Both the position numbers and the translations under genes were made by a program. 64,000 nt of DNA from Nemertoderma westbladi (Eukaryota; Animalia; Xenacoelomorpha): assembly GCA_032718475.1 (NCBI GenBank), contig JAUCBJ010007407.1, forward strand, positions 17,060 through 81,059. Reading direction: 5' to 3'. The first letter of the stretch is position 1, and every line of letters begins with the position of its first letter. The notes below the pieces were generated by a model. That model saw nothing but the letters and a program-made list of their open reading frames with translations. It searched no databases and was not told the DNA's origin. Shown in pieces: positions 1,348 through 53,233 of the stretch.

Positions 1348-1385
1348 TACTCATCGGTCAAAACGCGCATGAAGCGCTCGAGACA

Positions 1386-7023: not shown

Positions 7024-8382
7024 ATGACTGAGTTGATAGAAGATGATCTTGGTATCAGGGAGCGATATATTCTACCTTTACAAGCGTTTGTTGATAGCTT
7101 GATACGCGGCGACGCTGGTCCAACTACTCCGGAGGACGATGGTCGTTATATCGAACCGCCGATGTCCCAGGAGCAACTTACGCGTGAATTGGACTATAGA
7201 AAATTCACTGCTCGCTATACGCATTGTAATGGTACGTATATGGACTTCTTAACTACTGGCCATCCTATCGATTTACACGATACGGACGATATCGACACCG
7301 AAAGGGAAATGGTCCTGTTTAAATATCATACCCAGCGGAGTCGGAACGATAAATTGAGAATCGAATGCGAAAATTCCATTCGAAATCGACTCGAAAGAGA
7401 AGACGTTAAAGAACCGGATAAACGCGGTAACTCCAACGTATATTTGGAATTCTTGAGAGAAACATTGTAAAACCGAATAAATATCACCCGCGTTTCCCCT
7501 ACAAGACGTGCGTCTTTGGTATTATTGCAATGAATGCCCAAGACCCAACCAACAAACGGAAAGACATAAACATCCGTAGAGACGTTGCTTTAAACACGGT
7601 TTTACTCGCTATATTTACAGGAGTTTCAAGCGAAACTTGTTCGATGTATCACCTACGCTCGCTCGATTCAAACAATCCTTAAATAAACCTATGATCAGAG
7701 TTCCGGAATACTCGGTCAGACCTCCTCATTCCCTAGTTAGACCTCAGACTCTTGATCCTAATAGTATCATGGATCCTCCCGAACTGTACTCACTGTTCAA
7801 AGATCTAGTGCTACCCGAACAGTTAGTCGGTGGCACTCCGGTTGTGGGCTCCCTAAATATTCGCCCATCTTACCTAGTCGGATTGGGATGCGGACATCTA
7901 ATATCGTCATTCAACCGTATCATCGCCCCTGTTTAACCCGATACAACCTGTCACCGAGGCGGAGGAAAGAGTTATACGAAACGCGTTGGACACTATTCGT
8001 CAAAAGATCGGAAAATGAACCTACAATTGTTTAGAGAAACGTAAATTACAGTAGCAAGTCCAAGCGGTAAACGAATTAACTTTATCTCAGTTCGATCAGG
8101 AAAGTCAGAATCTCTAAGAAGATATCGAACTTGGACGACCCTATTCTCTGCAAGAGTTTTGGACTAACGCATCGAAAGATAAGCGGAGGAAAATCAGATC
8201 GAGGAGAAGCATATCGAAATGGACGAGACATCGACCGTAACCCTAAACCTTCAGATGCAATTGTATTGCACCCTTTACCCAGGAGTTACAGCCCTCCTAG
8301 TAAAGTGGCTCGCCCCAAAGAGAAAAGGACTCTTGCTAGCCTCAAAAAACTGCGTAAACGCCGTCCGCGTAAGAAAGACTAA
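7024..8382 (+). pseudogene. 3' accessory ORF of element A (disrupted): N-terminal 148 aa plus basic C-terminal segment
   Basis: 7024-7470 is highly similar to D 44776-45174 (MTELIE.DLGIRERY). 8131-8382 ends KKLRKRRPRKKD, like D 43727-44059. Confidence 0.7.
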
Positions 8383-12770: not shown

Positions 12771-13364
12771 AATCGAGCATATATCTGTTCCTATATATTC
12801 CTGGCACTAGTTCGAACCTGCGTCGCTAATTTTTTTAAGTAATAATTATTTTAGAAAAATAAATGTTGTGGGAATAGTGGTGGTTAGCTTTCAAATGAAA
12901 GTAAATTATGACCCCCCCCCCCCCCCCCCCCCAATGACATATGTAAACAAAACAAATTAATACAGAGACTGTTAATGTTTTTAATATAAACAACATATCA
13001 ACAAACATATTATTACGCTCTACATTACATAGATATATACACATCAGATATAAACGCGTAAATACTGTAGGTCTACACTAAAACACAGTTACGTCGGAAA
13101 AATTTAACCAAAAAGTTTAAAAATGGGATTCCTCATTTCTGTTTATGCAATAAAACTATTTAATTCAAATTTTTAATCTTATCAAGCGCTACAGTAGATT
13201 ACGACTTGGAGCACAAAATAAAATACAAAATTTATCACCCGTCATATAAAGTTACCAATAACATATATTATATTCTAACTATGGATTGCAGCAATTGTAT
13301 TTTGAACATTAAGGTTAACTTTTCCCAACGAAGATAGTGGTTCAATGAACCAATTAACATTAAC

Positions 13365-15252
13365 TATGCGAAGAGACAGTAACAAAATACCCTGCAATAT
13401 CCTACTGTAAAGTTTGTGAATGAAATCATAAATCCGACCTTCTCACCAAAACAATAAACTCTAAGTAAGCGAATATATATATTGCAGTATTTTGTCTCTT
13501 ATAACCGGTGAGGCAGAAAACAGTCTACGAACGGACAAACTTCGATAAAACAAAATCCTGCGCAGCGAATCCTAAAATCAGGCTGACTCACTGACGGACT
13601 AAGGGCGCTCGTATACCTTGCCGCGGTGTGATTTATATGGTTGGGATAGAGAAATGCTAGCTAGGTGCAGAGATGTCTAACTAGCGGGCAAAGCGCAGTA
13701 CGGACAAAAGTTAATTTTATATATTTTGAGGTGTAAATAATTTCTAACGCGCGTTTGTCTTGATTCTAAACAGTCAAAGTCAGTTTTGCTCCTTCACATA
13801 TATAATTACTGGGTCCGGTGTGCATTTTACAAATATTCTAATTTTGTAACTTGTAGGTCCAATACTCACGAATGATAAGGCTCCTTCCCCTTTCGTGTAT
13901 TTCCAGGACTCAAATTCAGGCATAAGGTTAATACTACGCCCAGAATTCGGCAATTTAATTTACCAGGTCCCTAATACTAAGAAGAAATGTGTTAGTTTAC
14001 TACAGTAGGCGTACAGTTACTAATAGCTAGCCTGGTTTTCTTATCTAGAATTTTGGTTGCCTAGATGTGCACGGCAACTTCCTAACAGAATGTTGGCGGG
14101 GACACGGTAGATGTTAGTATCCCTAATAGCCTCAATTTATTTTGCGCCTAGTTGTAAACTGCCCTACCGCCTGAACGGTACAATCCTAATTCAGGTAAAA
14201 TACAGTAACCCTTCTGGCCTACAAGTTCTAATGCAATGGACACCGTTGTACTACAAACAGTCGCCGACGCACCTATACTTAGCAAGAGTTAGGCGTACAG
14301 TTTGCTGCACCCTACCAATGTGTATGCCTTGTACCGGTGTGCCTGCGTCCTATCTGTGTACTAGTATCTCTGCCTGATCTCCTCTCCCCCGTAGGAATAT
14401 GAAGGTCTACTGCGGGTTTTTCTCTGAATTAAGACAGTACGGTCCCTAGATGTAATTTTTTAGCGCACAGCGTGTCACTACCTCTACCTTTGATCTTTGG
14501 TCTTACACTTAGGTAGCAAGGCATTGAACGCTGTCTAACCTTCAGGCGATGGGCGAATAACTCAAGAATGATATTGCGGGTTGTCTCCTCCTACATTCCT
14601 CAGATGTTCCCGTTCATTGCTGGGGTCCGATGTTTAGCCTGCCATCCTGTCCCTTAGTTGGGTTCACCGTGGTGAAGCATAGTAAAACAGATAGGAAAAG
14701 GGCAGATGTAACAAGTATTTCTAACTTTTATTACAGAATTAAACAATAACTATTATACAATAAATGTAACAAGAGTGAAGATAGATAGATAGAAAGAGAT
14801 AACTAATGAACGAAATCGCACCTTTTATAGCAAATTTGTGCTGCAATCAATCGAGAAAATTCTCGATTGTTCTATGAGTTCTAATAGGTTTTTAAAGATA
14901 ACTATTGGTCCAGCGAATATATAACTTGCACGACATTGGTTACTATCTAATAACTGCAATCCCATTGGTTAATCTACTTCGAGCAAATGCAATTTAATTT
15001 GTAGCGGTTAATTTAAATGAGTTGAAACTCTGCACAAAAAATAATTCGCACCTACTAGGATTCGAACTCAATACCTACTACATATAATTTCCAACGCTTT
15101 ACCGACTGAGCTACTGAACCACTTGAATAATCATCGTACAAATAGATATAGTAAATACAAATGAGGACTTAATGTAGTCTTTTATAGCAAAGTTAATTCG
15201 AACAAAATAAAATTTTGAAAATCCACGGCATTTATGAGAATATAATTCTATA
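13365..15252 (-). repeat. 3' LTR of element C
   Basis: Direct repeat of 27941-29823. Preceded on the sense strand by the PPT-like CCTGTTTTCATGGAGCGG (15253-15270). Confidence 0.95.
15036..15120 (-). ncRNA. tRNA-like Pol III unit within the C LTR (second copy 29607-29691)
   Basis: A box TAGCTCAGTCGG, B box GAGTTCGAATCC and a T6 terminator. Acceptor and anticodon stems do not pair, so it is not a functional tRNA. Confidence 0.7.
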
Positions 15253-15762
15253 CCGCTCCATGAAAACAGGATATTATCGTGCATAAAATATACGGTTTTC
15301 ACCAATACTAAATCAAATTATGGAATACTTGGGACGTACTTACATATTTACAAATTAAATTATCAACAATAATACCTCTACATAATAATTCGATACAAAA
15401 ATAATTACAAATTCAAATTTACGTATTTAAGGCTTTATTAAGTAAGTACAATATAAATCTAAATTAAATTCACCAAAATAAATCTATTGCATCTCAAATA
15501 TTGCATAAATTCAAAGAATCACAAATACTAATACTACTTAAATATAAAACAAATTGCATAAGTGCGGAATAAATCACAAGAAAGGCTCACAAGTCTTCCG
15601 TCTGCTCTTGCCTTCTATTTACTGCGAATACAAATACTGCTTCTTTATAAAATATAAATTGCATAATATTCGAAACAATAAATTGCGTAAGTTTGGAATG
15701 ACTACAAATATAGCACTTTCTAAATATAAATCTTTCTAAATGCAAATCTTTACTAAATATAG

Positions 15763-16050
15763 ATATAAACTGCATAAGTTTAGAACAATATAAACTGCAT
15801 AAGTTTAGAACAATATAAACTGCATAAGTTTAGAACAATATAAACTGCATAAGTTTAGAACAATATAAACTCTTTAGGCATCTCAAATATAAAATATAAA
15901 TCTTTCAAATATAAATTCCTTCTAAATACAAAACTTTCTGAATTTCATAAAATCGGAACAATACAAATACATAAACTTGGGGCAATAATAAATTGCATAA
16001 ATTTAGAACAATATAAATTGCATAAATTTAGAGCAATATAAATTTTAAAC
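15763..16050. repeat. 25-bp tandem repeat TATAAACTGCATAAGTTTAGAACAA (about 4 near-perfect copies plus degenerate ones)
   Basis: Directly visible in the 3' UTR of C. Confidence 0.85.
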
Positions 16051-16134
16051 AATACAAATTACACAAACAATACATAAGACAAACAATTCATAAGAAAGGC
16101 TCACGAGTCTTCCGTCCACTCCTTCCTTCCCGCT

Positions 16135-17735
16135 TTAACGCTTAGCGGATCGAGCTCTGCCGCGTCCTCGAAAACTGCGTATCGGCGATTTAGCTCGTGA
16201 TATGGGACTTGTTGGGCGAGCTACTGGTTTACTTTGGACGTTGGGAGGTGGTACGACCATTTCCTCACATATTCGTCTCTTAGTTATCCCAAATCCTCGT
16301 CCAATCCCTTGTGACCGATCGGTTGTATCTACCGCTGGTAAAACGTCTGGGAACGCGCGGGAAGCGGACGACGCAGACCCAAGAGAAGCTTGCGCCCCCT
16401 TTTGATCAGCTGGTATATGTCCCGATCCTCCTTGCGGTTCTCTGGGAAGCGAAACCGTATCCCGAGTAATTCGAATAGTCGGTTCGTATCCCCTTCGTTC
16501 TTCAACGTTGATAGTTTTCTTTAACTGTTGGCCCACTTTCTGAACCCTTATGATCCTGTGCTGTCCGTCCTCCCGAGGGTGACGTGCAGACGGCGCGTCC
16601 GGAGTAGCTGGTATGTTGGTCGCCTCTAGGACCTCCTCTTCCTCGAATACGCTCGCTCGTATACGTTTATGGTAGAACGCGGCTCGGTACGCCCATGCGA
16701 CGGTTAACCAAGCTCCCTTGTTCCGCTTTTCCGTTCGGAACCGGTCAAATTCACCATAGGTGATACGATTAACGACTTTCTGGAAATTCCATGTATTCTT
16801 ATTGTCAGGGTGTATCTGTAACAAATATTCGCGCACAACTCGGAATCCGCTATCGTGAGGCAAAATATCAACTACCTCGATGAGTTCGTCATATTGTGGC
16901 ATAGCGGAGATATATCCTTCCGACATCATAGTTTGGGGATTTACCGCCCAAAATCCAAGATGCGCTCTCATCGGGAATCGTCTTCTTTGTGCCGATACAT
17001 GTTCGTCAGCTAAATCTTCCCAATCATCAAATAGTTTTCGCACGAGTTTTACAGATTCGTGTTCGTATGGTATGTCTCGCAGTTGGCATTCAGATGCTCA
17101 ATGTCCCTTTATATTGCAGTATGTGCATTGAGCCATAAATCTCCAGCAAGTATAAAATGTATGGGACCCTTGATCTCCACACCATCCACAGATTAGTTGA
17201 GTCGTAGTAATGTGCTTTCCACTGCACTTTGTCGAATGATGTCCAGCGACGCCACATTTACCACACATCGTATTAGCAGGGTACCACACTCGCTCATATA
17301 TAAGATCGCCAATGGGTCGAGCGCTTCCTCCCACACTATAGTCATAATCGTCTGGATCGATAGGTTGGTGTGTTTCAGAAGGTTGTATTGCAAACTACAG
17401 CATCTGTTGCTTCTAGTTGTCGAATCTCCGTCTGAGATTTCTTCGGGAGGTTCCTTTCAATCTCAAGAAGTTCCTCTAAAGGATCATCGATGGTCGTCGT
17501 TACTTCGAAATCAGCACCTAAGTGACCGATAGGCGCGCGCGTCTGCCGTGATTCGTCCGTAACCTCCACGATACCGTCGTGTCATATTTAGTCTTTGCGA
17601 GTTTCGCTGTACTTTCTGATAAGTCCTTTATTCCAAATATGGTATAGTCTTTAGCTCCAAATCGTTCAAATGGCGCTGCTGCTTCCTCTTGGATATCATA
17701 TCCCCATCTCGGCTCTCCATGTATCCCCTTCGCCA
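16135..17735 (-). pseudogene. 3' accessory ORF of element C: three CCHC-type zinc knuckles, unknown domain, R/S-rich tail
   Basis: CGKCGVAGHHSTKC, CGWCGDQGSHTFYTC and CTYCNIKGH*ASEC. ORFs 17098-17334 and 16135-17043 are in frame across one TGA. The upstream part is frameshifted. Confidence 0.75.
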
Positions 17736-18447
17736 TTCTTTGAAGTATGGTTATATAATCATTGCTACTAGAGGGAATACAACAGAGTTTATTGTTAGTT
17801 GTGAGGAGATGTGAGAGTTTTAGTCTGCCCTTTTGGCTCGACAACGCTCTAACCTCCTACCCATAGCCTAAGATCTAGGGTTTCTTTAATGACACGCTGC
17901 TTCTTATCTAAAATTTTTTGCCGAAATAAAAACGATTTTGGGCTAAACTGGCTGTGAGTCTAAAATACTCACTTTTTGATCCCAAACTATTATCAGAAAA
18001 TAAGCAATCAAGAGTTAGTAATAAATATAGGGAAGTCTATTATTTGACGTAACTTATTGAAACAAGACTGTGTAAAATTTAATTAAAATTTAAGAAAGGC
18101 TCGCGAGTCTTCCATTCTCTTGTTTCTCTAATTTTAAGTTCCACCCGACTGTACCCTGAAATCTATTCACTGGAGAAAATTTTAAAATTTTTTCAAATCC
18201 AAATGGATTGTCTAAAATTTCGAAAATGTCTCAATATTGTGAGTTCCAAGTAGAATTCCATTTCTTATACCTACAAATCCCGCTCCTATGTGACACATAA
18301 GGGTACTACGGTGCTCAATGTTCACATATAAAGACAATGGAATTCTACCGCTGTCTTTACTACGGTGTACAGGTACGTGGAAATCTATTTGTAAACTCCT
18401 TACTATTTACTAACATTTGTTGGAGATTTGTAATCTCCAGACTTGTT

Positions 18448-21400
18448 TCACGTCTCTTCAAGAAGTACGAGACGTTGTGTCGGTCTGTCTACTGTACGAC
18501 CGTCAATTGTCCGTACAGTCACAGTTCTTGTCACTCCATCCATAGATGGATGTGTGTCCAAAATTACACCTGTTATCCAGAAGCTTCTTTTTAGATTCAC
18601 TTCTGCCAACAGCACGTGATCTCCCGCTCTTAAAGCGCGAGTTTTGTTGTACCAGGTAGTTCTGGCAGAAATAGAGGGCAAATAATGGTTTTGCCATATT
18701 TCCCAGAATTTGTTAGCTAGTAGTTGCGTGATTTTCCACGCTTTTCTACCGTAGCTATCGCCTTCTATGGGAATAGAAATAGGCGTTAATGTGGTCGGTG
18801 CCTGCATAAGCAGGTGTGCCGGTGTCAAAGCAAACTGGGATTGTTTGTCATCGGGTACTAATACTATTGGTCTAATATTTAGTATTGCCTCGATTTCAAC
18901 AAACAATGTTGTCAGTTGGTCGTCTGTCAAGATGTGGTTTACTGGAATTACTTTTGCCATGGCTGTTTTTATAGATCTAATCAATCTCTCCCAGACTCCG
19001 CCTCTCCATGGACTATCTGGAGGATTAAACTTCCAAACAATCTTGTAAGGACGTAGTTCGTTTGAGATTTGATCATGATCTAATTTCTTAAAGGCTCTAG
19101 CAATTTCATTTCGTGCACCAACAAAGTTTGTACCTTGATCTGAGTACAAGCATGTTACTAGTCCGCGTCTAGCGATAAATCGCCACAATGCTAGTATAAA
19201 GGCGTTGGTGGAAAGATCCATCACACGTTCAATATGAACTGCCCTACTGGACATGCATGTGAAAATCAGTCCCCAACGTTTTACTAGTATATGTCCACGT
19301 TTTGTATGTATGGGACCAAAGCAGTCAATTCCAGTCTCTGTGAAGGGTGGTCTGAATGCTTGTAGTCGTGCTTGTGGAAGTTCACTCATTTCTTGGGTAC
19401 TTATTCTAGAATGTACCTTTTTACAAATAATACACATACGCGTCACTGAACTTAATGCTTTACTGGGTCTAATTAATACAAATCTTGTACGTAAGTAGGA
19501 AAGACAGTGGTGTCTTCCAGCTTGTTTCAGATGTAAATGTGCATCCAGTATCATTGCACGTTGTAATTCGTGATGTTGTGGTATTATTATTGGGTACCTA
19601 AAATCAGTATTAAAGTCAATGTTTTGAAGCCGAGATTTATGACAAATTAAGCCATTATAAATAATCGGACTCCAACTTAATATTGGTGATGACTTGATTG
19701 GTTGACCTTGACTTATAGATGTAAATTCGCGCGCGAAATATCGCAATTGATAATGGCGAATTAATTTAATTTCACATCTGTCAATCTCAGTCAATGTGAG
19801 TCGACGTGTAAAGTCGCGTTTGCCTTTAACGTATTGTACAAAACGTACAATCCACGCTAATTTTCGGCACGCTTTGGTCCAAGAATCTGTTAGGTTTACA
19901 ATACGGTCGACGTAAGTATTTGTGACGTCATCAGGTAAGTCAATGGAGAATTTAGAAGGTTTTGTTTTACTAGATGGGCCCACGAGTCCGCCGGTAAGTA
20001 TTCCCTTGTTGACTGTTGATCCATCCGGGTCTACAAGTAATTTGTCCTTCTTCGTCTTCTTACCTTGATTGTCAGTACTTTGTGCGTCGATCCCTAATGG
20101 TGGTTTTAACTTTATGGGATCACTGGGTTTTGGTAAATTTATTTTTGTGCCGATATTAATCCCAGGTCTCACCGTAGGTTGTAAGGTTGGTATGTCTCTT
20201 GAGCGTAAAGTAACACCTGTATTTACATTAGCGTAGGTACTACCCACATCTGTAATACATGAGGTTTCACTGTACTTATGGTTACTCAAGGGTGTCAAGT
20301 TTGGTAGTTTGTCAATAGAAGGCTGCTCCAATAGGGAAACTGCGGCTTTACTATGTGTCGCTACGTTACTAATGTCTGGTAGAACATCTTGTGAAATGTC
20401 TGGTAAAATGTTTCGCGGAACATCCGGCGAAACGTCTAGTGACATGTCTGGCAAAATGTCTGGTTGACCGTCTAGTAACGTGTCTGGTTGACCGTCTAGT
20501 AACGTGTCTGGTTGACCGTCTAGTAACATGTCTGGTTGACCGTCTGGCGATACGTCTGGTTGACCGTCTGGCGATACGTCTGGTAACATGTCTGGTTGAC
20601 CGTCTGGCGATACGTCTGGTTGAGAAAGGCTCGCAAGTCTTCCTGCCCTAACTTTGTGAGTTATATTCTTCCATTTCGCCTTTGGTTTCTTCTTAAGTTT
20701 CGCCGTTGTCTTTTTCTTTGCTTTACCTTTCTTTGGTTTTTTAATTTCGGCGTCCTTAGGAATAGTATTAGACTTGTTATCGTAAAGTGGCGGCCAATGT
20801 TGTGTTGCTCTTTGTAAGAATTGTGGTCCATGTTGCCAAAATTTCTTGTTTTCCGGTTTACAGAATTCCTCAGGCATCATTCCTCGCGATGCAATATCAG
20901 CTGGATTTTGTGGTCCGGGACAATGTCGCCAATCTTCCTTTATTGAACGGTCTAGAATTTCTGCACGACGGTTAGCTACGAATGTCTTGAATTCAAGTGT
21001 GTCATTGTTTATATAAAATAAAACTAACGTCGCGTCAGTCCAATAAAATATCTGTAAACTTGACTGTAGTTCAGTCTGTATGAGGTTTACAATTGTCGTT
21101 GACAGAGTTGCGGCTTGTAGCTCAGCGCGTGGTGTCGTCATATACTTAGTAGGCATTGTTTTAGCCTTAGAAGTAATGAGCGAAACATCAAACTCGTCTG
21201 AGTCTACTTGTCTGCGCAAATACGCTGTCACTCCAAAGCCGTTGTCACTGGCGTCGGAAAAACAATGTAATTCTAAGTTGTCAGGAAATGTCGTCTGTAA
21301 TGGAAAGTACACCCGGGGTATGGAATAATCCTCTAGCGAAGATAATTGCGCCTCCCAAGTCTTCCATAAGTCCACTTGTTCGGATGAGATTGGTTCGTCC

Positions 21401-24400
21401 CATGTCAGTCCATCTTTCCAAATACTGCGCATATATATTCTTGCTTGCAGTATTATTGGGCTGATGAAACCTAATGGATCGAACAGTCTGCTTAGTTTCG
21501 ACAAGCAAGACCTCTTTGTCAGAGAATCTCCTTCAGCGTCCAGTTTTACTTTCACTCGAAAGTTGTCTGTGTTCGGGTCCCAAAATAGTCCCAACACCTT
21601 GGTCGTCGGCAGTGGTTCGAACTCTAAGTCAATGTCCCCACCCCCACGTTCAGTCGTTTCGAATGAATTTACCAATTCGGTGCTGTTTGAGGCAAACTTA
21701 GTGAGGTTAAAACCTCCGCCTGCTAAACAGTCCCGTAATTGATGTGCTACTGTTATAGCACTTTCTACTGTGTCACAACTCTGTAATCCATCGTCTACGT
21801 AAAAGTCTCGTTCTACGATCCGGATTACCTCTGGGTCATACATATGTTTCTGATCCCTAGCGGTCTGTTTTAGGGCGTACATAGTGCAATTTGGGCTGTC
21901 CCTGGCACCGAAAACGCAAACTTGCATTTGGTAAGTCGCCGGTGGTTGACTTAAGTCTCCATCCGGGTACCAGAGGAACCTCAAACTGTCTCTGTCTCGC
22001 TCTAATGCTCGCACTTGGTGAAACATCGCTTCTACGTCACAAGTAAATGCTACTTGGCGCTGACGGAAGCGCATAATCACCCCCATGAGATAATTATTCA
22101 TGTTTGGTCCGTCCATCAAGTCACTGTTGAGAGACATTCCTTCAAACAGGGCCGCGCAGTCGTTAACTACGCGTACTTTATCAGGTTTGTCGGGGTGTCT
22201 CACATAGTGATGTGGCAAATAGTATGTCTGGTCTGTCACAATCTCTGGGTTTGTCATCCTGATAGCGTACCCTTTTGTCAAATACGTCTCCATCTGAGTA
22301 TTGTACTGCAGATGGGCTTTCTCGTCCTTTAATAAACGTTGTCGTATTGAGTGTAGACGTCTTAAGGCTAGCGGATAATTATTGATAAGTTTAGGGCTTT
22401 GGCTACGCCATAGCATCCCTACCTCATAATGTCCGTCTTTCGTCTGGTGGATAGTATCTTCCATGATCTTCAAAGATTGTTTCTCTTGTTCCGACATACA
22501 CGGTTCATAACTACCGGGTTCTGCTGTATCTTGTTCTAACCACCTGATAGTTTTCTCTGTTAATTCTTTGTCTAATGCAGCTTGTTCCACTTGACAGTTC
22601 CTTAGTGTGTCGACATCGATATCGACGGGCATCGTTAATGTTATTGGTGTAGATAGACTCGCAAGCCTTCCGGCGTTATCATCTGTCGTCGATGGAACCT
22701 CTGCCTGACTCGTCTTCTTTTCACGCTCTATACTAACCTTGTGGATAGGTTGCTTTCTGTGACTTATCGTATTAGCTACACACGTCGTACCTGTAACGTT
22801 GTCGTGTTTTGTCGAACGTAGTGTAGTATAGTCTATGTCAGGTGAAAAGGAATGAATCGAAGTTGTAGTTAGTAAACTACATGTACTTTGTACATCGTCT
22901 TCTTCATCACTTATATCCAGTGTGCGCACAGGCGCTCGAGTATACCACCCTATCGGAATTCTACAGGCGTAAGCATTTCCTGCTACGACTACCGATGGTC
23001 TGGTTTCCCACACTTGATGTAAGTTGAATTGGTCTGTCCCGATCAGCATTGCTACTGACCGATAATTAACAGGACATTCAGGTACACCAAGGTGTCTGAA
23101 ATACTTACGGTCCTCTAAGGATTGCTCCGGCACTGGACCCAGTAGGTTACTAAAGTCCTTGGTGGCCGCAAAAGTCAAATCCTTAAAGGGTAACAAAGAC
23201 CTCTCCTTTTCGCTATGTTGCGATCTCGGAAGAAGAGTGTCCAAGTTTAACTTAACTCGTGTCACTGGTATTGCACGTTGTCCATGCATACTACTTACAG
23301 TGTACTTTAGATGCTTACCTTGTCTGAGATCTGTGACGACATCAGCTACCTTTTCATCCACGTAGCTGTGAGATGAGGCTGAATCTAGGATAGCGTAGAT
23401 TCTTTTGCTCCCTTTTGTGCCTGTAATCTTAACGGGAATTACACTAAACCCTTTTAGTTGATCAGGCGTCAGAAGAGCGATCAATGGTTGTTCGTCTTCA
23501 TCCGAGTATATGTCCTCGTCTTCATATTCTTCACCAGAAGACCCGGATTGTTCTGGGAAGCAATCCCAAATATGTGTCACAAAGGTTGGCGTTGTTCTCG
23601 ATTCGCGCGTTTTGTACGCATTATTACATTTCGCTGCTGCTTCTGGGTGTTCCCTGGTGAAGCGTATGGTCGGTGTATGACTGTCCGTGTGGAGTAAAGC
23701 GTCGTGATTGCGTCCACATAAATGACAGGTATCCGTATTAGGGCAATCCTTGCAGACATGTCCATGTTGTGTACACCTCCAACAAGAATCTAACGGTCTT
23801 ATTTGAAGTCGTCGTTCCTCTGAGTTTAATTCCCGAAATAACCGGCAACCTCTTAATTTGTGACCAGTGTGCCGCTTGCCTAACTGCTCGCAGTATTGGC
23901 AACCGCTAAAATCTGCACTCAGTTGTTGTCGGGTCTGTTTGATTCCAATAGGTGCAGACACCTTACTACCATCTGAAAATTGTCGGGTTTCCGTCGGTGT
24001 AGCGTAAGTGGCCGTCTTGGTGGATGTCGTCAGTTGTTTTTGTCGGTTGTGTGATGGTAAGGAAATTCCTTCTGCTACGATGTGTTGGTCAGTGTAGTTG
24101 GATCGAGTCTCCACTACCGCTTCCCTGGATATTAATAAGTACACATCTTCTAGTTTTAGGAATCCACCTCTCTCTTCCCGCTGGTATTCAATCTTCCTCC
24201 ACTCCCGACGAAGTCGATGGTGGAGTCTTCCTATAATCTTTAATAGGACAGTAGGGGTGTTTCCATACTCAAGTTGTCCAATAGATCTTAAGGTTGTGAT
24301 AGCGTTTTTTATTTCGTCAGTGAGTTTTAGTAAGTCGACGGGTTTAGTAATGGCGCCTCCCTTACAGAGTTCTTCTATCACTGACTTAGCCATACTTACG

Positions 24401-24858
24401 GTGCCTCCGTAAATCAAAGTTAAGCGATCGTACGCTAATTCGAAGGCGTCTGGTACACCAACAAAGGTCTCTGCCAAACGTTTGGGTTCTCCCGATAATG
24501 TTTGAAGCAGGTAATTAAATTTCTCCCTTGATGTAAAGGCGCACACAGAGATCTGAGATTCAATATAGTCGACGAAAGTGTGCCAATGTTTGGAGCTACC
24601 GGAAAACTTAGGTGGTTGTTGCACCGGTAGTCCTTGTCTCGCTGCGAATTTAGCTATTTCCTCGGCAACGTTCAAAGTTTCGCGTCCTGGGTTGGCAATC
24701 TGGCTGGTGTTCTCTCTTCTAGGCGCTTTTCTTTGATACGATGTGTTTGTCGATGGTATTGGTCTTTGCGGAACTTTAGGATTTCTATTGTGTTCGAATT
24801 CGGAATTTCTCGAACTGTCGGTGTGAACTTCCTCCAAGCGTTCCTCTATCTGGGCCAA
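18448..24858 (-). CDS. pol: BEL/Pao gag C-terminal half, protease, RT, RNase H and integrase (2136 aa open)
   Basis: KFSGSSKHW, three Cys/His knuckles, protease AILDSAS, RT FYVDDG, RNase H FSDAS, integrase H-x3-...CIIC, GIDCFGP and SDQGTNF. Confidence 0.97.
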   Translation of the reverse strand: MAQIEERLEEVHTDSSRNSEFEHNRNPKVPQRPIPSTNTSYQRKAPRRENTSQIANPGRETLNVAEEIAKFAARQGLPVQQPPKFSGSSKHWHTFVDYIESQISVCAFTSREKFNYLLQTLSGEPKRLAETFVGVPDAFELAYDRLTLIYGGTVSMAKSVIEELCKGGAITKPVDLLKLTDEIKNAITTLRSIGQLEYGNTPTVLLKIIGRLHHRLRREWRKIEYQREERGGFLKLEDVYLLISREAVVETRSNYTDQHIVAEGISLPSHNRQKQLTTSTKTATYATPTETRQFSDGSKVSAPIGIKQTRQQLSADFSGCQYCEQLGKRHTGHKLRGCRLFRELNSEERRLQIRPLDSCWRCTQHGHVCKDCPNTDTCHLCGRNHDALLHTDSHTPTIRFTREHPEAAAKCNNAYKTRESRTTPTFVTHIWDCFPEQSGSSGEEYEDEDIYSDEDEQPLIALLTPDQLKGFSVIPVKITGTKGSKRIYAILDSASSHSYVDEKVADVVTDLRQGKHLKYTVSSMHGQRAIPVTRVKLNLDTLLPRSQHSEKERSLLPFKDLTFAATKDFSNLLGPVPEQSLEDRKYFRHLGVPECPVNYRSVAMLIGTDQFNLHQVWETRPSVVVAGNAYACRIPIGWYTRAPVRTLDISDEEDDVQSTCSLLTTTSIHSFSPDIDYTTLRSTKHDNVTGTTCVANTISHRKQPIHKVSIEREKKTSQAEVPSTTDDNAGRLASLSTPITLTMPVDIDVDTLRNCQVEQAALDKELTEKTIRWLEQDTAEPGSYEPCMSEQEKQSLKIMEDTIHQTKDGHYEVGMLWRSQSPKLINNYPLALRRLHSIRQRLLKDEKAHLQYNTQMETYLTKGYAIRMTNPEIVTDQTYYLPHHYVRHPDKPDKVRVVNDCAALFEGMSLNSDLMDGPNMNNYLMGVIMRFRQRQVAFTCDVEAMFHQVRALERDRDSLRFLWYPDGDLSQPPATYQMQVCVFGARDSPNCTMYALKQTARDQKHMYDPEVIRIVERDFYVDDGLQSCDTVESAITVAHQLRDCLAGGGFNLTKFASNSTELVNSFETTERGGGDIDLEFEPLPTTKVLGLFWDPNTDNFRVKVKLDAEGDSLTKRSCLSKLSRLFDPLGFISPIILQARIYMRSIWKDGLTWDEPISSEQVDLWKTWEAQLSSLEDYSIPRVYFPLQTTFPDNLELHCFSDASDNGFGVTAYLRRQVDSDEFDVSLITSKAKTMPTKYMTTPRAELQAATLSTTIVNLIQTELQSSLQIFYWTDATLVLFYINNDTLEFKTFVANRRAEILDRSIKEDWRHCPGPQNPADIASRGMMPEEFCKPENKKFWQHGPQFLQRATQHWPPLYDNKSNTIPKDAEIKKPKKGKAKKKTTAKLKKKPKAKWKNITHKVRAGRLASLSQPDVSPDGQPDMLPDVSPDGQPDVSPDGQPDMLLDGQPDTLLDGQPDTLLDGQPDILPDMSLDVSPDVPRNILPDISQDVLPDISNVATHSKAAVSLLEQPSIDKLPNLTPLSNHKYSETSCITDVGSTYANVNTGVTLRSRDIPTLQPTVRPGINIGTKINLPKPSDPIKLKPPLGIDAQSTDNQGKKTKKDKLLVDPDGSTVNKGILTGGLVGPSSKTKPSKFSIDLPDDVTNTYVDRIVNLTDSWTKACRKLAWIVRFVQYVKGKRDFTRRLTLTEIDRCEIKLIRHYQLRYFAREFTSISQGQPIKSSPILSWSPIIYNGLICHKSRLQNIDFNTDFRYPIIIPQHHELQRAMILDAHLHLKQAGRHHCLSYLRTRFVLIRPSKALSSVTRMCIICKKVHSRISTQEMSELPQARLQAFRPPFTETGIDCFGPIHTKRGHILVKRWGLIFTCMSSRAVHIERVMDLSTNAFILALWRFIARRGLVTCLYSDQGTNFVGARNEIARAFKKLDHDQISNELRPYKIVWKFNPPDSPWRGGVWERLIRSIKTAMAKVIPVNHILTDDQLTTLFVEIEAILNIRPIVLVPDDKQSQFALTPAHLLMQAPTTLTPISIPIEGDSYGRKAWKITQLLANKFWEIWQNHYLPSISARTTWYNKTRALRAGDHVLLAEVNLKRSFWITGVILDTHPSMDGVTRTVTVRTIDGRTVDRPTQRLVLLEET
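20385..20620 (-). repeat. 12/24-bp coding tandem repeat (PDVSPDGQ/PDTLLDGQ) in the RNase H-integrase linker
   Basis: Visible in both DNA and translation. Confidence 0.9.
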
Positions 24859-27132
24859 CTTGTTGACAACTGGTCTCAGAATGTCGGCAAATTGTTGGGT
24901 ACTGATCGCGTCCGTTGGTTGTAACGCCCTTTGTATTGGTGTATTTTGTGGAGGATTATCGATAAATTAATTATCTGAACGCTCATGTTTACATTCGTCG
25001 GCCGCTCCTGTTCTAAATACCTCGCATTCCGGGTAATCCGACTCGCTTGAAGTACTACTATCACCTGGATACAGTGGTCGACGTGCTCGTGTCCGTTGCG
25101 TCGTTCGAATTTTAACATTCCGCTTCGGAACATCGTCTACTGGTCTCCGTTGTTCGGTAGGCTCGCAGGTCTTCCTCGAAGTCGTAGATTGCGATGTAAA
25201 CTGGTTAAATGGTCGAGTATCCACTGGTCTCCGTTGTTCGGTAGGCTCGCAGGTCTTCCTCGAAGTCGTAGATTGCGATGTAAACTGGTTAAGCGGTCGC
25301 GTATCCACTGGTCTCCATTGTTCGGTAGGCTCACAGGTCTTCCTCGAAGTCGTAGATTGCGATGTAAACTGAATCGTTGGTCGCGTAATGGCGTTTGAGT
25401 CCAAAGTCCTCGTAGGTCTAAACACAGTTGGGTTTACGTTGTGCGTGACCGGTTTTGGTGTCGACGGTTGACTCACCTGTTTAGTCGTCATTAATGCAGG
25501 TCCGACTAATAAACTACTACGATCCGTTATTGGCGGATTACTTACCTTGACCTTTGGAATAGGCGATGATGTTACTCTCGGCGGTACAAATTTGTCCGGA
25601 ATAACATACCTGTGTTCCATCGCATCATGTATAGGAGATATACTGCCACTACCAGCAATCAAAACAGGTCTTTTATTCGTAATTGGTGCGAACATTGGAG
25701 TTACTTGCGGAAATCGTTGACATAAGTCTTTAACCAATTCCCATTCTCGCTCAGGTGCTCCTACGCTTCCTTCCTTCATTCGTTCCTGAATTTGACGGTG
25801 TCTTACCTCTAACTGGTCTAGATCGTGTCCGTCTCGAGATCTCATCGATCGATCGCGGGCTTGTAGATCCAGATCTTCCTTAGCGTTGGCTAATTCTCTC
25901 GCCTTCTTCTCGAGTTCGAAATGAAGTTTAACTTCCTTCTCGCGTTGTTCCGTCTGTTGTTGTTGCGCCTCGAACTCCGCTAGTCGTATAGCTGATTGAG
26001 CCTTTATTTGCCGTTTTTTCATTTCGGCTCTCGCTTCTGAAACTAGCCTTTGTCGCTCTAACTCGGCCGCTGCCGCCGCCGCCGCCGCTTGTCGCTCTAA
26101 CTCAGCCGCTGCTGCTGCCGCCGCTTGTTGTGCAATGTCCAACTCTAACTTTTCCATCTCGGCTGCTTCCAACTCGGCTTGTTCTTGCAGATGAGAGATT
26201 CTCGCAACATTTGCGACGCGTAGTTTCTCTTCCTCTACAGCTGCTTGTACCGTCAGCAGTTGAGTTTGTTCCTCAATTTCTCGTTGTTGTCTGTAGTACT
26301 GTTGTAGCTGTCGAGAAATTTCTGACGTCGCTATACTTACCTCGCCAATTTTGCTGCGAATACTCACTAATGATTGGTCCAGTATTCCCGGTGCCGGTTC
26401 GATTTGTACGGGTGAAGTTTCCCTCGTATATTCCGGCACGGTTTCCAAATCGCCGACGTCTTCGCCGCACATACGTAAGTGATCCGTCAGATGTTTCAAT
26501 TGTCCATCCAGTCGGTACAGTTCCTGTTCTTCCTCGGGCTGTAATAACTCGTCGGAAACCGACTCACCTAGCAACTGGTCCGCTTGTTCCTGTTGTATCT
26601 GTCTAACGGTCGTCTTAAACTGAATCAGTTTCTCCCTAGCGATCATTAATTTCTCGAGGATTCTAAACTGTGTGTCCATATCCGGTCTCTGTCTAGCTAG
26701 ATCTTGTAGACCAATTAGATTATCTACGGACTAATGTACTTTACTCTGTACTCTAACCTGGAGGGTGTAGAACTCAAACCGAGACATCGGAGCGGTCAAC
26801 TCGTCTAATATGCGTTGGCCTTCTCCAATACTCCTGGTAATATGCGCCATGTATCCTCCGACGCTTCTAACCACACTTTCCTGGCTTCCTACTGAACTTA
26901 CCATGTCCGTTTCTCTATGTCTAGGTTGCGGGACCGTTAGAAAATCCTCAGTCCTGCCGTCGCCTCGTACTACGGCATCCGGTACTCCCGTTGGATGTAC
27001 TGGTGACGCGCACGGAGTAGGTTCGGTAGGCTCATGAGTCTTCCCCTGTGGTTCTTCCGCTTCTGACTTATCCGTGTTACATGAGTCATAGTCGGTTTGT
27101 GTATTCTTCGTATAGTCTTATTTGTCACTCAT
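24859..27132 (-). pseudogene. gag: N-terminal gag extension of C (coiled coil, Ala-rich), in frame with pol but with three in-frame stops
   Basis: ATG at 27132 is in frame with 26679 and 24858. Stops are TAA (codon 5), TAG (~26732) and TAA (24967-24969). Confidence 0.8.
25137..25372 (-). repeat. 84-bp coding tandem repeat, ~3 copies (QFTSQSTTSRKTCEPTEQ.RPVD)
   Basis: Directly visible. Confidence 0.9.
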
Positions 27133-27929
27133 TTCGGTAGTTGTAAGTCAAGTAAAGTGAGTGTCAAAGTATCAAACTTACCGTATTTATATCAAAACGG
27201 TATTAATTACAGTCATATAAAATTAGCCTACCGGCCGATTTTATAGCAGATGGATAAAATTAGCCAAGCGGCCAATTTTACAGCAAATAAATGTCACGGA
27301 ATAAGTATATAATAAAATTAGCCTAGCGGCCAATTTTATAACAAATAAATCGGATAACGATATACGTTATCAAAAGGTAGATTAAATACAATAATACGGA
27401 CTAATTCAGCAATAAACAAAGAAATCGTACGGAATGCATAAATACTTGAGACAGTGGAACCCACAATAATTTTAACTAATACGGTAATGCCTAACTGATT
27501 TATGCAACTTTTCGAACTCACCCCCTCCAATGATTCTCCAGAAAAACAGATTCCCAGATACAAACCGGACGTGAACCTTTCCGTTTCCAGCGTTGCGGAC
27601 GAAGTGCGATTTTCCCAACCAAAGTTGTTGAGTTATCTATCTCCCAAACTTGCTAAACACGGTCTTGCTCTCGTTACAGTCTAGAAATGAGCTCTGAATC
27701 CTGAAAAACAAAAGAGTTAGGTTTTACTTTACAAAAATTTTGTACCGGTACAATATGGTATTTAAACCCTTTTTGAACACCGGTATTCAATTCCAAATAT
27801 TTTACACGCGGTTCAAATCAAAATTTTTATTTCAAAATATTAGCACTTAGCTTATCAAATATAAACTTTTACCTCAAAATACAAAATTTTCAAATAACTT
27901 TAGTCCTACCGAACCGTAGTTCAGTAAAA

Positions 27930-27940
27930 CATATTCCTAC
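27930..27940 (-). other. Non-tRNA primer-binding site of C (GTAGGAATATG), complementary to LTR 28967-28977
   Basis: Flush with the 5' LTR end; exact 11-nt inverted match in the LTR. Confidence 0.8.
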
Positions 27941-29823
27941 TATGCGAAGAGACAGTAACAAAATACCCTGCAATATCCTACTGTAAAGTTTGTGAATCAA
28001 ATCATAAATCCGACCTTCTCACCAAAACAATAAACTCTAAGTAAGCGAATATATATATTGCAGTATTTTGTCTCTTATAACCGGTGAGGCAGAAAACAGT
28101 CTACGAACGGACAAACTTCGATAAAACAAAATCCCGCGCAGCGAATCCTAAAATTAGGCTGACTCACTGACGGACTAAGGGCGCTCGTATACCTTGCCGC
28201 GGTGTGATTTATATGGTTGGGATAGAGAAATGCTAGCTAGGTGCAGAGATGTCTAACTAGCGGGCAAAGCGCAGTACAGACAAAAGTTAATTTTATATAT
28301 TTTGAGGTGTAAATAATTTCTAACGCGCGTGTGTCTTGATTCTAAACAGTCAAAGTCAGTTTTGCTCCTTCACATATATAATTACTGGGTCCGGTGTGCA
28401 TTTTACAAATATTCTAATTTTGTAACTTGTAGGTCCAATACTCACGAATGATAAGGCTCCTTCCCCTTTCGTGTATTTCCAGGACTCAAATTCAGGCATA
28501 AGGTTAATACTACGCCCAGAATTCGGCAATTTAATTTACCAGGTCCCTAATACTAAGAAGAAATGTGTTAGTTTACTACAGTAGGCGTACAGTTACTAAT
28601 AGCTAGCCTGGTTTTCTTATCTAGAATTTTGGTTGCCTAGATGAGCAGGGCAACTTCCTAACAGAATGTTGGCGGGGACACGGTAGATGTTAGTATCCCT
28701 AATAGCCTCAATTTATTTTGCGCCTAGTTGTAAACTGCCCTACCGCCTGAATGGTACAATCCTAATTCAGGTAAAACACAGTAACCCTTCTGGCCTACAA
28801 GTTCTAATGCAATGGACACCGTTGTACTACAAACAGTCGCCGACGCACCTATACTTAGCAAGAGTTAGGCGTACAGTTTGCTGCACCCTACCAATGTGTA
28901 TGCCTTGTACCGGTGTGCCTGCGTCCTATCTGTGTACTAGAATCTCTGCCTGATCTCCTCTCCCCCGTAGGAATATGAAGGTCTACTGCGGGTTTTTCTC
29001 TGAATTAAGACAGTACGGTCCCTAGATGTAATTTTTTAGCGCACAGCGTGTCACTACCTCTACCTTCGATCTTTGGTCTTACACTTAGGTAGCAAGGCAT
29101 TGAACGCTGTCTAACCTTCAGGCGATGGGCGAATAACTCAAGAATGATATTGCGGGTTGTCTCCTCCTACATTCCTCAGATGTTCCCGTTCATTGCTGGG
29201 GTCCGATGTTTAGCCTGCCATCCTGTCCCTTAGTTGGGTTCACCGTGGTGAAGCATAGTAAAACAGATAGGAAAAGGGCAGATGTAACAAGTATTTCTAA
29301 CTTTTATTACAGAATTAAACAATAACTATTATACAATAAATGTAACAAGAGTGAAGATAGATAGATAGAAAGAGATAACTAATGAACGAAATCGCACCTT
29401 TTATAGCAAATTTGTGCTGCAATCAATCGAGAAAATTCTCGATTGTTCTATGAGTTCTAATAGGTTTTTAAAGATAACTATTGGTCCAGCCAATATATAA
29501 CTTGCACGACATTGGTTACTATCTAATAACTGCAATCCCATTGGTTAATCTACTTCGAGCAAATGCAATTTAATGCGGTTAATTTAAATGAGTTGAAACT
29601 CTGCACAAAAAATAATTCGCACCTACAAGGATTCGAACTCAATACCTACTACATATAATTTCCAACGCTTTACCGACTGAGCTACTGAACCACTTGAATA
29701 ATCATCGTACAAATAGATATAGTAAATACAAATGAGGACTTAATGTAGTCTTTTATAGCAAAGTTAATTCGAACAAAATAAAATTTTGAAAATCCACGGC
29801 ATTTATGAGAATATAATTCTATA
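27941..29823 (-). repeat. 5' LTR of element C
   Basis: About 13 substitutions and one 5-bp indel relative to the 3' LTR (counted by eye). Confidence 0.95.
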
Positions 29824-42430: not shown

Positions 42431-43648
42431 TGTTCGCGCTTTTGAAGACCTTTAGCAGTTTAACCTGCCAAAATTTATATGTCTTCTAGTTAATTAAAAC
42501 CACTTTAGCATACGACAATATTTTATGCTAATACGCAAAACATTAACCGAAGTCAGCCCATGCGCGATCATTCACCCGATGGATCTACACCCGGGAGACT
42601 GAATTCGGATCCTTGAATTGTATTATTACAGTGTAAGGTTGCAGTGTAAACTTACTGTATTATTCGATAGATCGTTAATAATTAATCTCTGACAGATATT
42701 ATTGGCTTTCGGGAAATATTAACAGTTCCTTTAGGACGTGGCGCTTTATCTATTTAAACAGAACTAAGACTTATACTAAAACGCAACGATACTGCTTATG
42801 ATTAAAGTATAAAGCGTATTCTTTAGGAAATACTTTGTTACCAATCTCAATCATACACACTATTCTGCCGACAGTCAGTATATTTGATCACACATAAAGA
42901 GAGCAGTAATTGACTCACGTAGGGTCTGCTAAATAACATTGGATTCAATACACACCACATTAATATAAATCGCAATTGTTATGTATAGCCGGTCTCTCTA
43001 ACCTGTAGTGTTATCAAGAAAATTGGGAATTGGGTGATTTATCCGTATTATCCAAATAGCAATATTTCCATCAACAAAATAAGTACAATTAATAACTGAC
43101 GGTAAAATAACAGTACAAACAATATGATTAGTTAAATTGATCGGTAGTTAGGTAACAGTTTATACTTTCGATAATTCAAGCAGTTTACGGTACAGCAGTA
43201 TCTATCCAAAATGCCGGTGTTTCTGGCTTAGACAGCAATAACAACAAAGTATCAAGTAAGGCAGTAAGACTGAACACTCTCCTTATGATCGACTAAAAGC
43301 TACACGTCGACAGGAAAAATCGCTCTGATTGGCTCAAGCCAAACAAAGAACCGTGCGTCCAATGGCTGTTTCCATGTCAGCAACCAGCTGTTAGATGTCG
43401 TAATATGAATTATCACGGCTAAACTGTGAAAGGTAGTTGGTGCATGGCAGGTTTTTTGCCTTACCATGTCCACTAAAACACGTATATAGCAGAATTACTC
43501 TTATGTCCGTTAAAACACCTGTAAAGGTACCTTGCGGGCGAGGGGAATATATCTACAGTTAGAAAACCTTTTAGAGTATTCCAGCGCCTGTGGGGAAACT
43601 GGATTGCGAAGCAAAAGGGGCCAGTTATATCCCACAGAAGCTTTTACA
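42431..43648 (-). repeat. 3' LTR of element D
   Basis: Direct repeat of 53234-54451; PPT at 43649-43666. Confidence 0.95.
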
Positions 43649-43726
43649 CCGCTCCCAGAAAATGGGATTTAAGTCTATAAAATATACAAAATCACAGTTT
43701 CTAAAATATAAAAATACTCTAAACAG

Positions 43727-45174
43727 TTAGTCTTTCTTGCGCGGACGGCGTTTACGCAGTTTTTTAAAGCTAGCAAGAGTCCTTTTCTCTTTGGGGCGAG
43801 CCACTTTACTAGGAGGGCTATAACTCCTGGGTGAAGGGTGCAATATGATTGCATCAGAAGGTATGGGATTGCGATCGGTATATCCGCCGGTCGAAGTACC
43901 GGGTTGATTGACATCAACGTCCGGGGAGAGGGGTCTAACGGCTTTGAGAGCTCGTTTCAAGACAGCCGCTCTTACGGGTCCTTTACGAGTGGTCTGAACG
44001 AGGGCCGTGGGTGGACCATAGGCAGTTAGAAACTTCCTTGGTTTAATGGTTCTTTCCAACTCGCGTTCGCGGGCTCTGTACTCGTAAGGCCGTCGATATA
44101 CTTCCTGTAACTCAGGGTGTGAGTTGACAAATAAGTCTCCATAGGCCGGATCTTAACGGATAAAGTTTATTAAGTTATACGAATTGATGTCACTCGGATT
44201 AATGCTCCTGAGGAATTTGCGTACATATTTGGTTGAAATACATTCTCCAACGCACTTCAATAGTTCATAACTTGATATGCATGATTTCTGTTCAACCGAA
44301 GCGAATAGATAAGGATGTAACGCATAAACTCCTTCGTAAGCGCGTCCGGGATAATAGCGATGGCGCGAATCACAATATAAATCAGTGTTCGCTTCCCAAG
44401 CTCTGATGTAACGTAGTGTGATCATTTCATCTACGCTTTCCAAATCGTGATTAAAAGGGCAATCGAAACTGGCATGTCCCTTTAGTTGACAATGGTGACA
44501 TTGAGTCATAAATTGAGGGCAAACCGCAAAATGTGCAAATTATTAAATCTGCAATACGCGCAATAAATTTCCATCGCCGGTTGTTCGTGGAAATAAGAAC
44601 AGCGGACGTTTGTGTCCATGGGCGTAACATGGTCTCTCGATGCGCATAATCGACAACGTTGCCGAGAAACATAGTTGGCATGGCGATAATCGTACGCAGT
44701 GAGACACTGTGGACTTTGATACCATTCTAGGATGTAATCGTTGTCGCTGTTCCGAGCGCGATAGGCTGAATCTCCTCAGATTCTAGACATATTGGTTCGT
44801 CTTCCCAGTCTGTTACGAATGGAATTTTCGTGATCTATTCTCGGTTTATCGTTACGACGCCGCTGGGTATGATATTTAAATAGAACCATTTCCCTTTCGG
44901 TGTCTACATCGTCCGTATAATGTAAATCGATAGGATGGCCAGTAGTTAAGAAGTCCATATACGTACCATTACGATTCGTATAGCGAGCGGTGAATTTTCT
45001 ATAGTCCAATTCACGCGTAAGTTGTTCCTGGGACATCGGCGGTTCGATATAACGACCATCGTCCTTCGTAATAGTCGGATCGGCTTCACCGCGTATCAAG
45101 CTATCCACAAACGCTTGTAAAGGTAGAGTATATCGCTCCCTGATACCAAGGTCCTCTTCTATCAATTCCGTCAT
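43727..45174 (-). pseudogene. 3' accessory ORF of element D (disrupted), with CCHC knuckle and basic tail
   Basis: LIICTFCG and FMTQCHHCQLKGHASFDC align with the C accessory protein; the N- and C-termini match A. Confidence 0.75.
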
Positions 45175-50961: not shown

Positions 50962-52329
50962 GTTTGATTGTACAGTCGAATGCCTACTGCTATATTACAG
51001 TTAAAGCAAGTCTAGTAATTCAGTATCACTGTTAGCCTAATAATTAATTACCGATACTGCTACTCAGTGTAGCGTGATATATATATAATATATTAGAATA
51101 CCGGTATGCTTATAATATATATATAAGTATTATTACAGACTAGATTTGTCACAGAGTACCGGTATATAATTTTAGCACAAATATATATAAATATATAATA
51201 GGCCTATCGTGAATACCGGTATACAGCTGACACTTATAGTATATATAAGTATAATTATTACTAGAATTAATTACAGAATACCGGTATGATTTCAGCTCAA
51301 ATTTATAGAAATAAATATAATAAGCCTATGGTAAATACCGGTATGTCAATTATTTTAGAATAATTGAATTTCTGAATATTTTAGGGTTACTTGGTTACTT
51401 TAACTTACTTTATTACCGTTATTTAAGCAGCAGTCCAACTGATATTGAGACCTAGTTGTTGTATGGCAGGCCTACTATTTATAAATCGTTTGAGTTGATT
51501 TATAATACTTATATACCCGTTTAAATGGGTTTTTTGTCAATATTTGAAATAAATGTTATTATTTCTGGGGGAATCACTACACAGAAGCTGTGCGCTGTCA
51601 GTGAAGTGTTACTTATTGAGACACTAAAACTGATAATTCTAATTTACCTAAGTTACTTAATACTACAAATTACTTACGATACGGGTGAGATTAATTCTCT
51701 AATTAAACACAACAAAAATATTACGTACAAAATTTTTAGGGTAATTTTACAGGAAGTCTACAAACCAGCCTAACAAAGGGTTAGATTTCTGGCTATTACA
51801 AAGGACAGGGTACTACGGTATTTAAATAATAAGTAGTAGTAAATATATTGTACTGTCCAGATAGGAAAATACCACCGCCTGACGACCTATAACCGTATCG
51901 CTATAGGTACTACGTTATGTATCACGGATTGTTCCTACCCAGAGGCTAATAGAGCTAACGAATGTGCCTATCAACCACTTTACAACACAGATATACTGCC
52001 TACACTAATTACTTCGGATAGCACTGTACACTAAACCCTAAATTAGGTACAAGTACCGGTATAACAAATAATCAGTAGTTAAATATACTTGAACAGTTAA
52101 AAGAACCACGGCATCTGCTGGAGTGACCGAAGCACAAAGTCGTCAGTCTTTACCTACGCCAAGCAGCCCTGATGTAGTACCGGGGTTAGTTTAACTATAA
52201 CGGTATGTATAACAAGCACAATTACTGTAGGAATAAACTTGGGGACATGAATGTTGCGAATAATCGCATAAACTCTGAATAATAAATATTACGCTACCCG
52301 TACAGAATACTCAAACAAATACAAACCAA

Positions 52330-53221: not shown

Positions 53222-53233
53222 ATAAACTGTTAC
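53222..53233 (-). other. Non-tRNA primer-binding site of D (GTAACAGTTTAT), complementary to LTR 53955-53966
   Basis: Flush with the 5' LTR end; exact 12-nt inverted match in the LTR. Confidence 0.8.

Follow-up and report, generated by a model that had tools for sequence, protein, structure and literature searches.

What is the open reading frame that lies between pol and the 3' LTR of certain BEL/Pao retrotransposons of Nemertoderma westbladi, and what might its product do for the elements that carry it? The question arises from a stretch of 64,000 nucleotides (contig JAUCBJ010007407.1, positions 17,060 to 81,059 of the forward strand; hereafter the window), which is a patchwork of animal retroelements. 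Among these, C, D and A are BEL/Pao elements. A first-pass annotation made from the letters of the window had proposed that all three carry, in sense orientation between pol and the 3' LTR, a non-env gene for a multi-zinc-knuckle protein. We refer to this frame as ORF3; all coordinates are those of the window.

Element C (13363..29823, minus strand) is a complete BEL/Pao LTR retrotransposon. Its LTRs (13363-15252 and 27939-29823) are 1890 bp long and 99.05% identical, they enclose 12.7 kb, and inspection of termini and flanks revealed a 5-bp target-site duplication, GTTAA. The gag-pol frame (24966..18448, minus strand; 2172 aa) matches the Pfam families Peptidase_A17 (E 2e-42), DUF1759 (3e-10) and DUF5641 (2e-20); thus both the Pao-type gag and pol domains and the LTR pair with its target duplication place C among the BEL/Pao elements. 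Element D (42431..54451, minus strand) is a BEL/Pao insertion from which most of pol has been deleted. Its LTRs (42431-43648 and 53234-54451; 1218 bp, 97.9% identical) are bordered by a 5-bp target-site duplication (TCACA) and both of its ends are complete, but DUF1759 is the only Pfam domain found in its 1404-aa frame, and it lacks counterparts of the RT/RNase H (1593-3368) and integrase (3557-5252) parts of A (D 46780-47370 compared with A 1347-5393). Despite the loss of pol, gag, ORF3 and both LTRs have been retained, and D is a non-autonomous derivative of a family whose word depth is very high in three DNA runs. Element A, a relative of D truncated by the start of the window, shares 86% DNA identity with it over 5253-7398 and 93% over 8232-8480. 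The pol of A (1815-5393, plus strand) contains Peptidase_A17, DUF5641 and Integrase_H2C2 (Pfam), with an open RT-to-integrase frame of 1192 aa, and is 42-43% identical to that of C. Because C and D are both complete insertions with target duplications, ORF3 is internal to each.

Several other features of these elements deserve mention. A purine-rich word, GGAGCGG, lies directly upstream of the 3' LTR in C (15253-15270), D (43649-43665) and A (approximately 8460-8480), and is likely to be a polypurine tract conserved between the families. The LTRs of C have the termini TAT..ATA instead of TG..CA. Between the ORF3 stop of C and its 3' LTR is an AT-rich, internally repeated stretch (15644-16042), where D has only about 78 nt. 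The Gag of both C and D has a very long N-terminal extension ahead of the DUF1759 capsid domain. In C this extension (24967-26730, minus strand) covers 587 codons, matches no Pfam family and is in frame with gag-pol, with one intervening stop; in D (49000-50994, minus strand) it covers some 650 residues with Ala/Glu/Lys-rich stretches and a coiled-coil-like look, and the two extensions cannot be aligned. Between its RNase H and integrase parts the pol of C has a long insert, in which a tandem repeat of 12-nt period (20373-20623, minus strand) encodes PDVSPDGQPD-like repeats.

The remainder of the window includes a further BEL/Pao gag fragment (DUF1759, E 1e-15), accompanied by no pol, in a GC-rich (50%) and strongly GC-skewed segment at 9976-11546 (minus strand). 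LINE-type reverse transcriptase or endonuclease fragments and stray integrase fragments are found at 30528-32546, 59083-60327, 62746-63270 and 56321-57226 (all minus strand) and at 32529-33068 (plus strand). Dense arrays of 15/17-nt tandem repeats occupy 37021-38821, in two oppositely oriented blocks that are 84-90% alike as inverted copies, and a unit of approximately 163 nt is repeated four times in tandem at 61402-62053, its copies being 63-77% alike.

The minus-strand frame of C between 17856 and 16135 contains six stops. The main frame of ORF3 (16135..17394, minus strand) comprises 419 codons and a stop; a single in-frame stop at 17098-17100 divides it into open parts of 98 aa (17394-17098), with three CCHC knuckles, and 320 aa (17097-16135). 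The knuckles (17086..17265) have the forms CX2CX4HX4C, CX2CX5HX4C and CX2CX4HX4C, the last of which contains the stop. They are followed by a post-knuckle domain that aligns with D (16660..17085), and by a basic tail (16138..16659) that is rich in Arg, Pro, Ser and Gly, ends in an RGRGRARSAKR cluster and has a net charge of +16 over 159 residues. Upstream, ORF3 continues in another frame with 68 open codons (17378..17581, minus strand). Whether an open frame of 112 codons beyond it (17518..17856, minus strand) also belongs to ORF3 is uncertain: no alignment with the N-terminal part of D was found, and the four differences from other genomic copies listed for it (among the best-supported 40 of 191) have no third-position bias. 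The ATG near 17736 that had been put forward as the start of the gene lies in this 112-codon frame, which we could not connect to ORF3, and is doubtful to that extent; the 68-codon frame, by comparison, is joined to the main frame in other copies.

In D, ORF3 (43727..45189, minus strand) has an ATG at 45174, an N-terminal part reaching to 44779, knuckles at 44459-44655, a domain that starts at 44458 and a tail, of net charge +18, that runs to 43730. Two stops (44776-44778 and 44153-44155) and a frameshift near 44527 interrupt the gene, leaving the open pieces 45189-44776, 44775-44506, 44539-44153 (after the frame shift) and 44152-43727. The A-type ORF3 (7024..8382, plus strand) matches D in its N-terminal part (7024-7398; 86% amino acid identity over 130 codons) and in 41-47 codons of its tail (8218-8379). 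Its middle (7399-8217, 820 nt) is unrelated to D (37-45% nucleotide identity) and contains many stops, and neither knuckles nor a post-knuckle domain are present in A. The proposed trio of sense frames is accordingly reduced to C and D, with A contributing only a D-like N-terminal part and tail; the multi-knuckle gene does span two divergent families (C and A/D), although not three copies. The proposal was correct in holding that every copy in the window is disrupted: the ORF3s of C, D and A are each broken. Its Arg/Lys-rich tails are likewise real, as the net charges in C and D and the D-like tail codons of A attest.

Contigs from other copies bear on the relationship between the A and D types. 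In three of four runs (X1, X2 and X5) contigs abandon the D sequence at 44800-44812, the very place where the likeness of A and D ends, which indicates that A-type copies exist beyond the window; one contig of the fourth-label run departs from the D sequence near 43871. The N-terminal part and tail of D have three to five times the depth of its middle, a hint, though only a hint since contig depth cannot rank the parts of a gene, that A-type copies are common.

The ORF3s of C and D are homologous. BLASTP aligns them with 29% identity over 133 aa (E 1e-15). When both are read through, with X at frame breaks and stops, each has approximately 480 residues and the alignment extends over 186 of them at 26% identity (E 6e-18), covering the CCHC knuckles, which number three in each and are collinear, together with a domain of approximately 110-150 residues. 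The three motifs of C recur in D in unchanged order, with a longer spacer between His and Cys in the first D knuckle. Four blocks of similarity had earlier been matched by eye: blocks two to four fall within our alignment, but the first (LICGWCG in C, IICTFCG in D) does not survive, its D letters having been taken from a third frame. The collinear D partner of the second C knuckle is instead IYCAYCR..H, in D frame a. No alignment was obtained between the N-terminal parts of C and D. The two proteins nonetheless have a common build, in which a variable acidic N-terminal part is followed by three CCHC knuckles, then by the domain of approximately 110-150 residues and finally by a tail of 140-160 residues that is basic and disordered, and both genes lie in sense orientation between pol and the 3' LTR. 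The same place, orientation and architecture in two families sustain the original view that ORF3 is a non-env gene of the element, as opposed to a nested insert or a chance reading frame. Had ORF3 drifted neutrally while the pols diverged to 42-43% identity, a likeness of 26-29% would not have persisted, and for this reason we regard it as other than neutral.

If ORF3 has been maintained by selection, then differences among its genomic copies should carry the mark. Copies were compared using Logan contigs of three DNA runs with one organism label, together with one run (X5) of a second label; the differences considered are the best-supported 40 of 191 for the C stretch and the best-supported 40 of 175 for the D stretch. 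Both families occur at very high word depth in the three DNA runs, contig depth being no equivalent of copy number. Among the best-supported 40 of 191, 25 differences lie in C 16138-17394. Synonymous changes at third positions account for 19 of them, against a neutral synonymous expectation of 23-29% (P between 3e-8 and 1.3e-6). Within the same 40 of 191, the knuckle part (17101-17394) has 15 synonymous differences out of 18, the post-knuckle domain has only two or three differences altogether, and the tail has two synonymous and three non-synonymous ones, a count that shows no constraint. Because so few fall in the post-knuckle domain, the case for selection there is carried mainly by its conservation between C and D.

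The defects of the C copy in the window are partly its own. At 17100, within the stop at 17098-17100, nearly all depth in all three DNA runs (18-31 contigs each) has another letter, and the single X5 contig at this position likewise differs from the window copy; the stop is thus private. Near 17388-17390 the window copy has one letter more than other copies: a letter is missing at 17388 or 17390 in all depth in X1, X3 and X5 and in part of the depth in X2. The absence of that letter joins the 68-codon frame (17581-17378) to the main frame. Since the stop is private and other copies join the frames, the ORF3 of family C is longer and less broken than the window copy implies. Upstream of 17574 other copies diverge from the window sequence. 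ORF3 in family C evolved under purifying selection and was a selected gene.

The A/D family presents a more divided picture. Comparison of A with D yields a dN/dS of 0.24 for the N-terminal part (130 codons; Fisher P 2e-5) and of 0.15 for the tail (47 codons). The shared parts of the two ORF3s contain no indels, compared with many of 1-2 nt in the 1.6-kb spacer behind pol (5400-7000). These shared parts evolved under purifying selection. In D no depth in any of the four runs agrees with the window at 44155, which makes the stop at 44153-44155 private, but the extra letter at 44527 that joins the D frames is found in only 8-18% of DNA depth (5, 14 and 6 contigs) and in two contigs of X5. Among the best-supported 40 of 175 differences, the D knuckles ahead of the frameshift have 10 synonymous and 2 non-synonymous ones, whereas the domain behind it has 2 synonymous and 7 non-synonymous ones, which looks like neutral decay. 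Considering all 39 D differences listed among the best-supported 40 of 175, none is at a second codon position (P 5e-5). Decay of CpG was considered as a source of the differences and rejected, for it explains only 4 of the 25 listed in C and 5 of the 39 listed in D. The balance of synonymous and non-synonymous change speaks for a gene in family C, as it does for the two parts that A and D share, and not in the neutral-looking domain of D. As we read these data, selection acted on ORF3 in both families, and the gene was disabled in the D lineage that multiplied. Low-depth contigs of X5, a run that is only guessed to be RNA, cover the ORF3s of C and D; no informative joint was seen among them.

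To what class of protein might ORF3 belong? The zinc knuckles are called by motif only. The best knuckle model in Pfam, zf-CCHC_4, gave E 0.98 and 9.5 bits where the cut-off is 27, although such short models often miss single knuckles, and apart from this sub-threshold knuckle no Pfam family matched any ORF3 piece at E <= 1; the enzyme families GDSL esterase and DEDDy exonuclease gave no Pfam match in any piece. Sequence and profile searches of solved structures returned no credible match, the Atlas search no usable match, and a scan of metagenome contigs no relative. Searches with C residues 40-270, a 206-aa C segment and a 128-aa D segment among proteins of near length found no relatives either. 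HMMER against 1.84 billion representative proteins produced one match (P0003, E 2.4e-8), a fragment of a retrotransposon Gag-like protein aligned over two knuckles only. AlphaFold2 reached a pLDDT of 35.6 with the single sequence and 35.8 with a two-row C/D alignment, too poor for a fold search; with very low confidence, the post-knuckle domain of C is predicted to be mostly helical. To judge from Pfam, solved structures, the Atlas and the protein library, the post-knuckle domain has no known relatives.

Two more familiar identities were rejected. ORF3 is not a copy of the gag or pol of its element, since no similarity to either was found in the window beyond the knuckles; the Gag of the same elements has, in translation, Cys/His motifs of its own. 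Nor is ORF3 env-like, for it has no signal peptide, no membrane segment and no match to a glycoprotein family in Pfam. The usual threshold for a membrane segment is a 19-residue Kyte-Doolittle mean of approximately 1.6; the highest values over all ORF3 pieces of C, D and A are 0.46-0.73, in keeping with the original call that there is no transmembrane segment.

How does ORF3 compare with extra genes already described for LTR elements? The nearest in position are the env-like ORF3s of BEL/Pao, described as F-like in roo and as gB-like glycoproteins in mosquito BEL elements (PMC13524379, PMC3118150). They share with our ORF3 the superfamily and the place between pol and the 3' LTR; ours differs in lacking signal peptide, membrane segment and glycoprotein family, and in having Cys only in its CCHC knuckles. 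As far as the available portions of a BEL/Pao survey (PMC3118150) and of a recent env study (PMC13524379) extend, env is the sole extra gene mentioned, and our literature search found no BEL/Pao ORF3 with knuckles, although Repbase or Dfam may already hold an annotation of it. Non-env ORF3s of GDSL esterase and DEDDy exonuclease type are reported for LTR elements of bdelloid rotifers (PMC5408684). Like ORF3 they are non-envelope genes that occupy the env slot behind pol, a slot which is therefore modular, but they are recognisable enzymes, mostly of elements outside BEL/Pao, and ORF3 consists of knuckles and a domain without relatives. The aORFs of plant LTR retrotransposons (PMC7264820) are lineage-specific extra ORFs, mostly of unassigned function, in the Ty3 and Ty1 superfamilies; they differ in host and superfamily and share with ORF3 the general phenomenon, a likeness of description.

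A functional precedent is provided by CERV, an extra protein of the Ty3/gypsy element Cer1 of C. elegans that is required for nuclear export of the genomic RNA (PMC10309623). Its spliced mRNA comprises five exons and has exons in common with gag, and the protein contains a C4-type loop and a domain resembling a G protein (PMC10309623). Like ORF3, CERV is a non-env accessory protein of an LTR element and lacks homologues in other lineages; its Cys-rich motif is a presumed RNA-binding one, it has a candidate signal for nuclear localisation, and it works in trans, as ORF3 presumably does (PMC10309623). In contrast to ORF3 it belongs to another superfamily and lacks three CCHC knuckles, and the two are likened by description and not by sequence. 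Non-env extra genes behind pol, in rotifer and plant elements, are thus known already, as is CERV for function.

The first-pass annotation had put forward a nuclear RNA-binding factor that might chaperone a self-priming fold, export RNA in the manner of Rev or suppress silencing. We put at roughly one half the probability that one BEL/Pao lineage possesses in ORF3 a true accessory gene, the protein of which binds the RNA of its own element and serves as a trans-acting escort for nuclear export or packaging. On motifs and charge, the knuckles and the strongly basic tail would bind nucleic acid, and the C-terminal Arg/Lys clusters may take the protein to the nucleus. There, or during packaging, it would by analogy escort the unspliced element RNA; we favor this role because of the CERV precedent, because Gag already has Cys/His motifs of its own and because the elements are very long. 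Where it is needed the protein would act in trans, as we infer from the pol-deleted, ORF3-frameshifted or module-less copies that stand at very high depth. Against a strict requirement are the common ORF3 frameshift of most D-family copies and element A, which has no knuckle module and yet an open RT-to-integrase frame; the module is evidently not needed in cis, and perhaps not at all in the A subfamily.

The main rival to an RNA escort, although we think it rather unlikely, is a second nucleocapsid-like chaperone that works in the cytoplasm or in virus-like particles in packaging, dimerisation or reverse transcription of a very long RNA. The pairing of CCHC knuckles with basic, disordered tails is typical of retroelement nucleocapsids, the sole library match is to the knuckles of a Gag-like protein, and C, with its 12.7 kb between LTRs, is a long element. 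Gag nucleocapsids likewise have CX2CX4HX4C motifs followed by basic sequence. Yet the knuckles of ORF3 are in a separate gene and precede a conserved non-Gag domain, and the middle one is of CX5H type; a Gag with Cys/His motifs is already at hand, ORF3 is unlike gag outside the knuckles, and a position behind pol is an odd site for the gene of a stoichiometric structural protein.

Ranking after the chaperone are a silencing antagonist and a dead relic. A counter-defence factor that weakens silencing of the element by host small RNAs or by other routes, for instance through sequestration of RNA, could account for the lack of relatives outside the lineage, for an N-terminal part and tail that diverge fast, as in proteins engaged in host conflict, and for the very high word depth that the families reach in the three DNA runs; we hold it improbable, given that no positive selection was seen, the differences being mostly synonymous, and that no similarity to known suppressors was found. 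More improbable still is that ORF3 is an old captured or duplicated sequence, now without function in either family. The three broken window copies, the frameshift common to most D-family depth, the neutral-looking D domain and the absence of the module from A are what such a passenger would leave behind, but it would not produce the strong synonymous excess of family C, where stop and frameshift are peculiar to the copy in the window, nor the ORF3 identity kept while pol diverged. ORF3 is best read, from its motifs and composition, as a lineage-specific and probably trans-acting nucleic-acid-binding accessory protein, for which we infer a role in either escort and export or chaperoning.

A bolder formulation is doubtful but can be stated. 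ORF3 may represent a new accessory family, uniting three CCHC knuckles, a new fold and a basic tail, that provides giant BEL/Pao elements with a trans-acting escort of genomic RNA analogous to Rev and CERV; it would have been invented independently in a third superfamily of LTR retrotransposons, and would be older than the divergence of families with only 42% identity left between their pols.

BEL/Pao elements are described in the literature searched as gag-pol elements, occasionally with env. A selected, non-env knuckle gene common to divergent families would add a layer of accessory proteins to the superfamily, parallel to CERV in Ty3/gypsy and to Rev in retroviruses, and would offer a way to study RNA management in elements that are very long and very high in copy number. 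Family C, in which the gene is kept, and A/D, in which the module has been frameshifted or replaced at very high depth, together constitute a natural experiment on action in trans.
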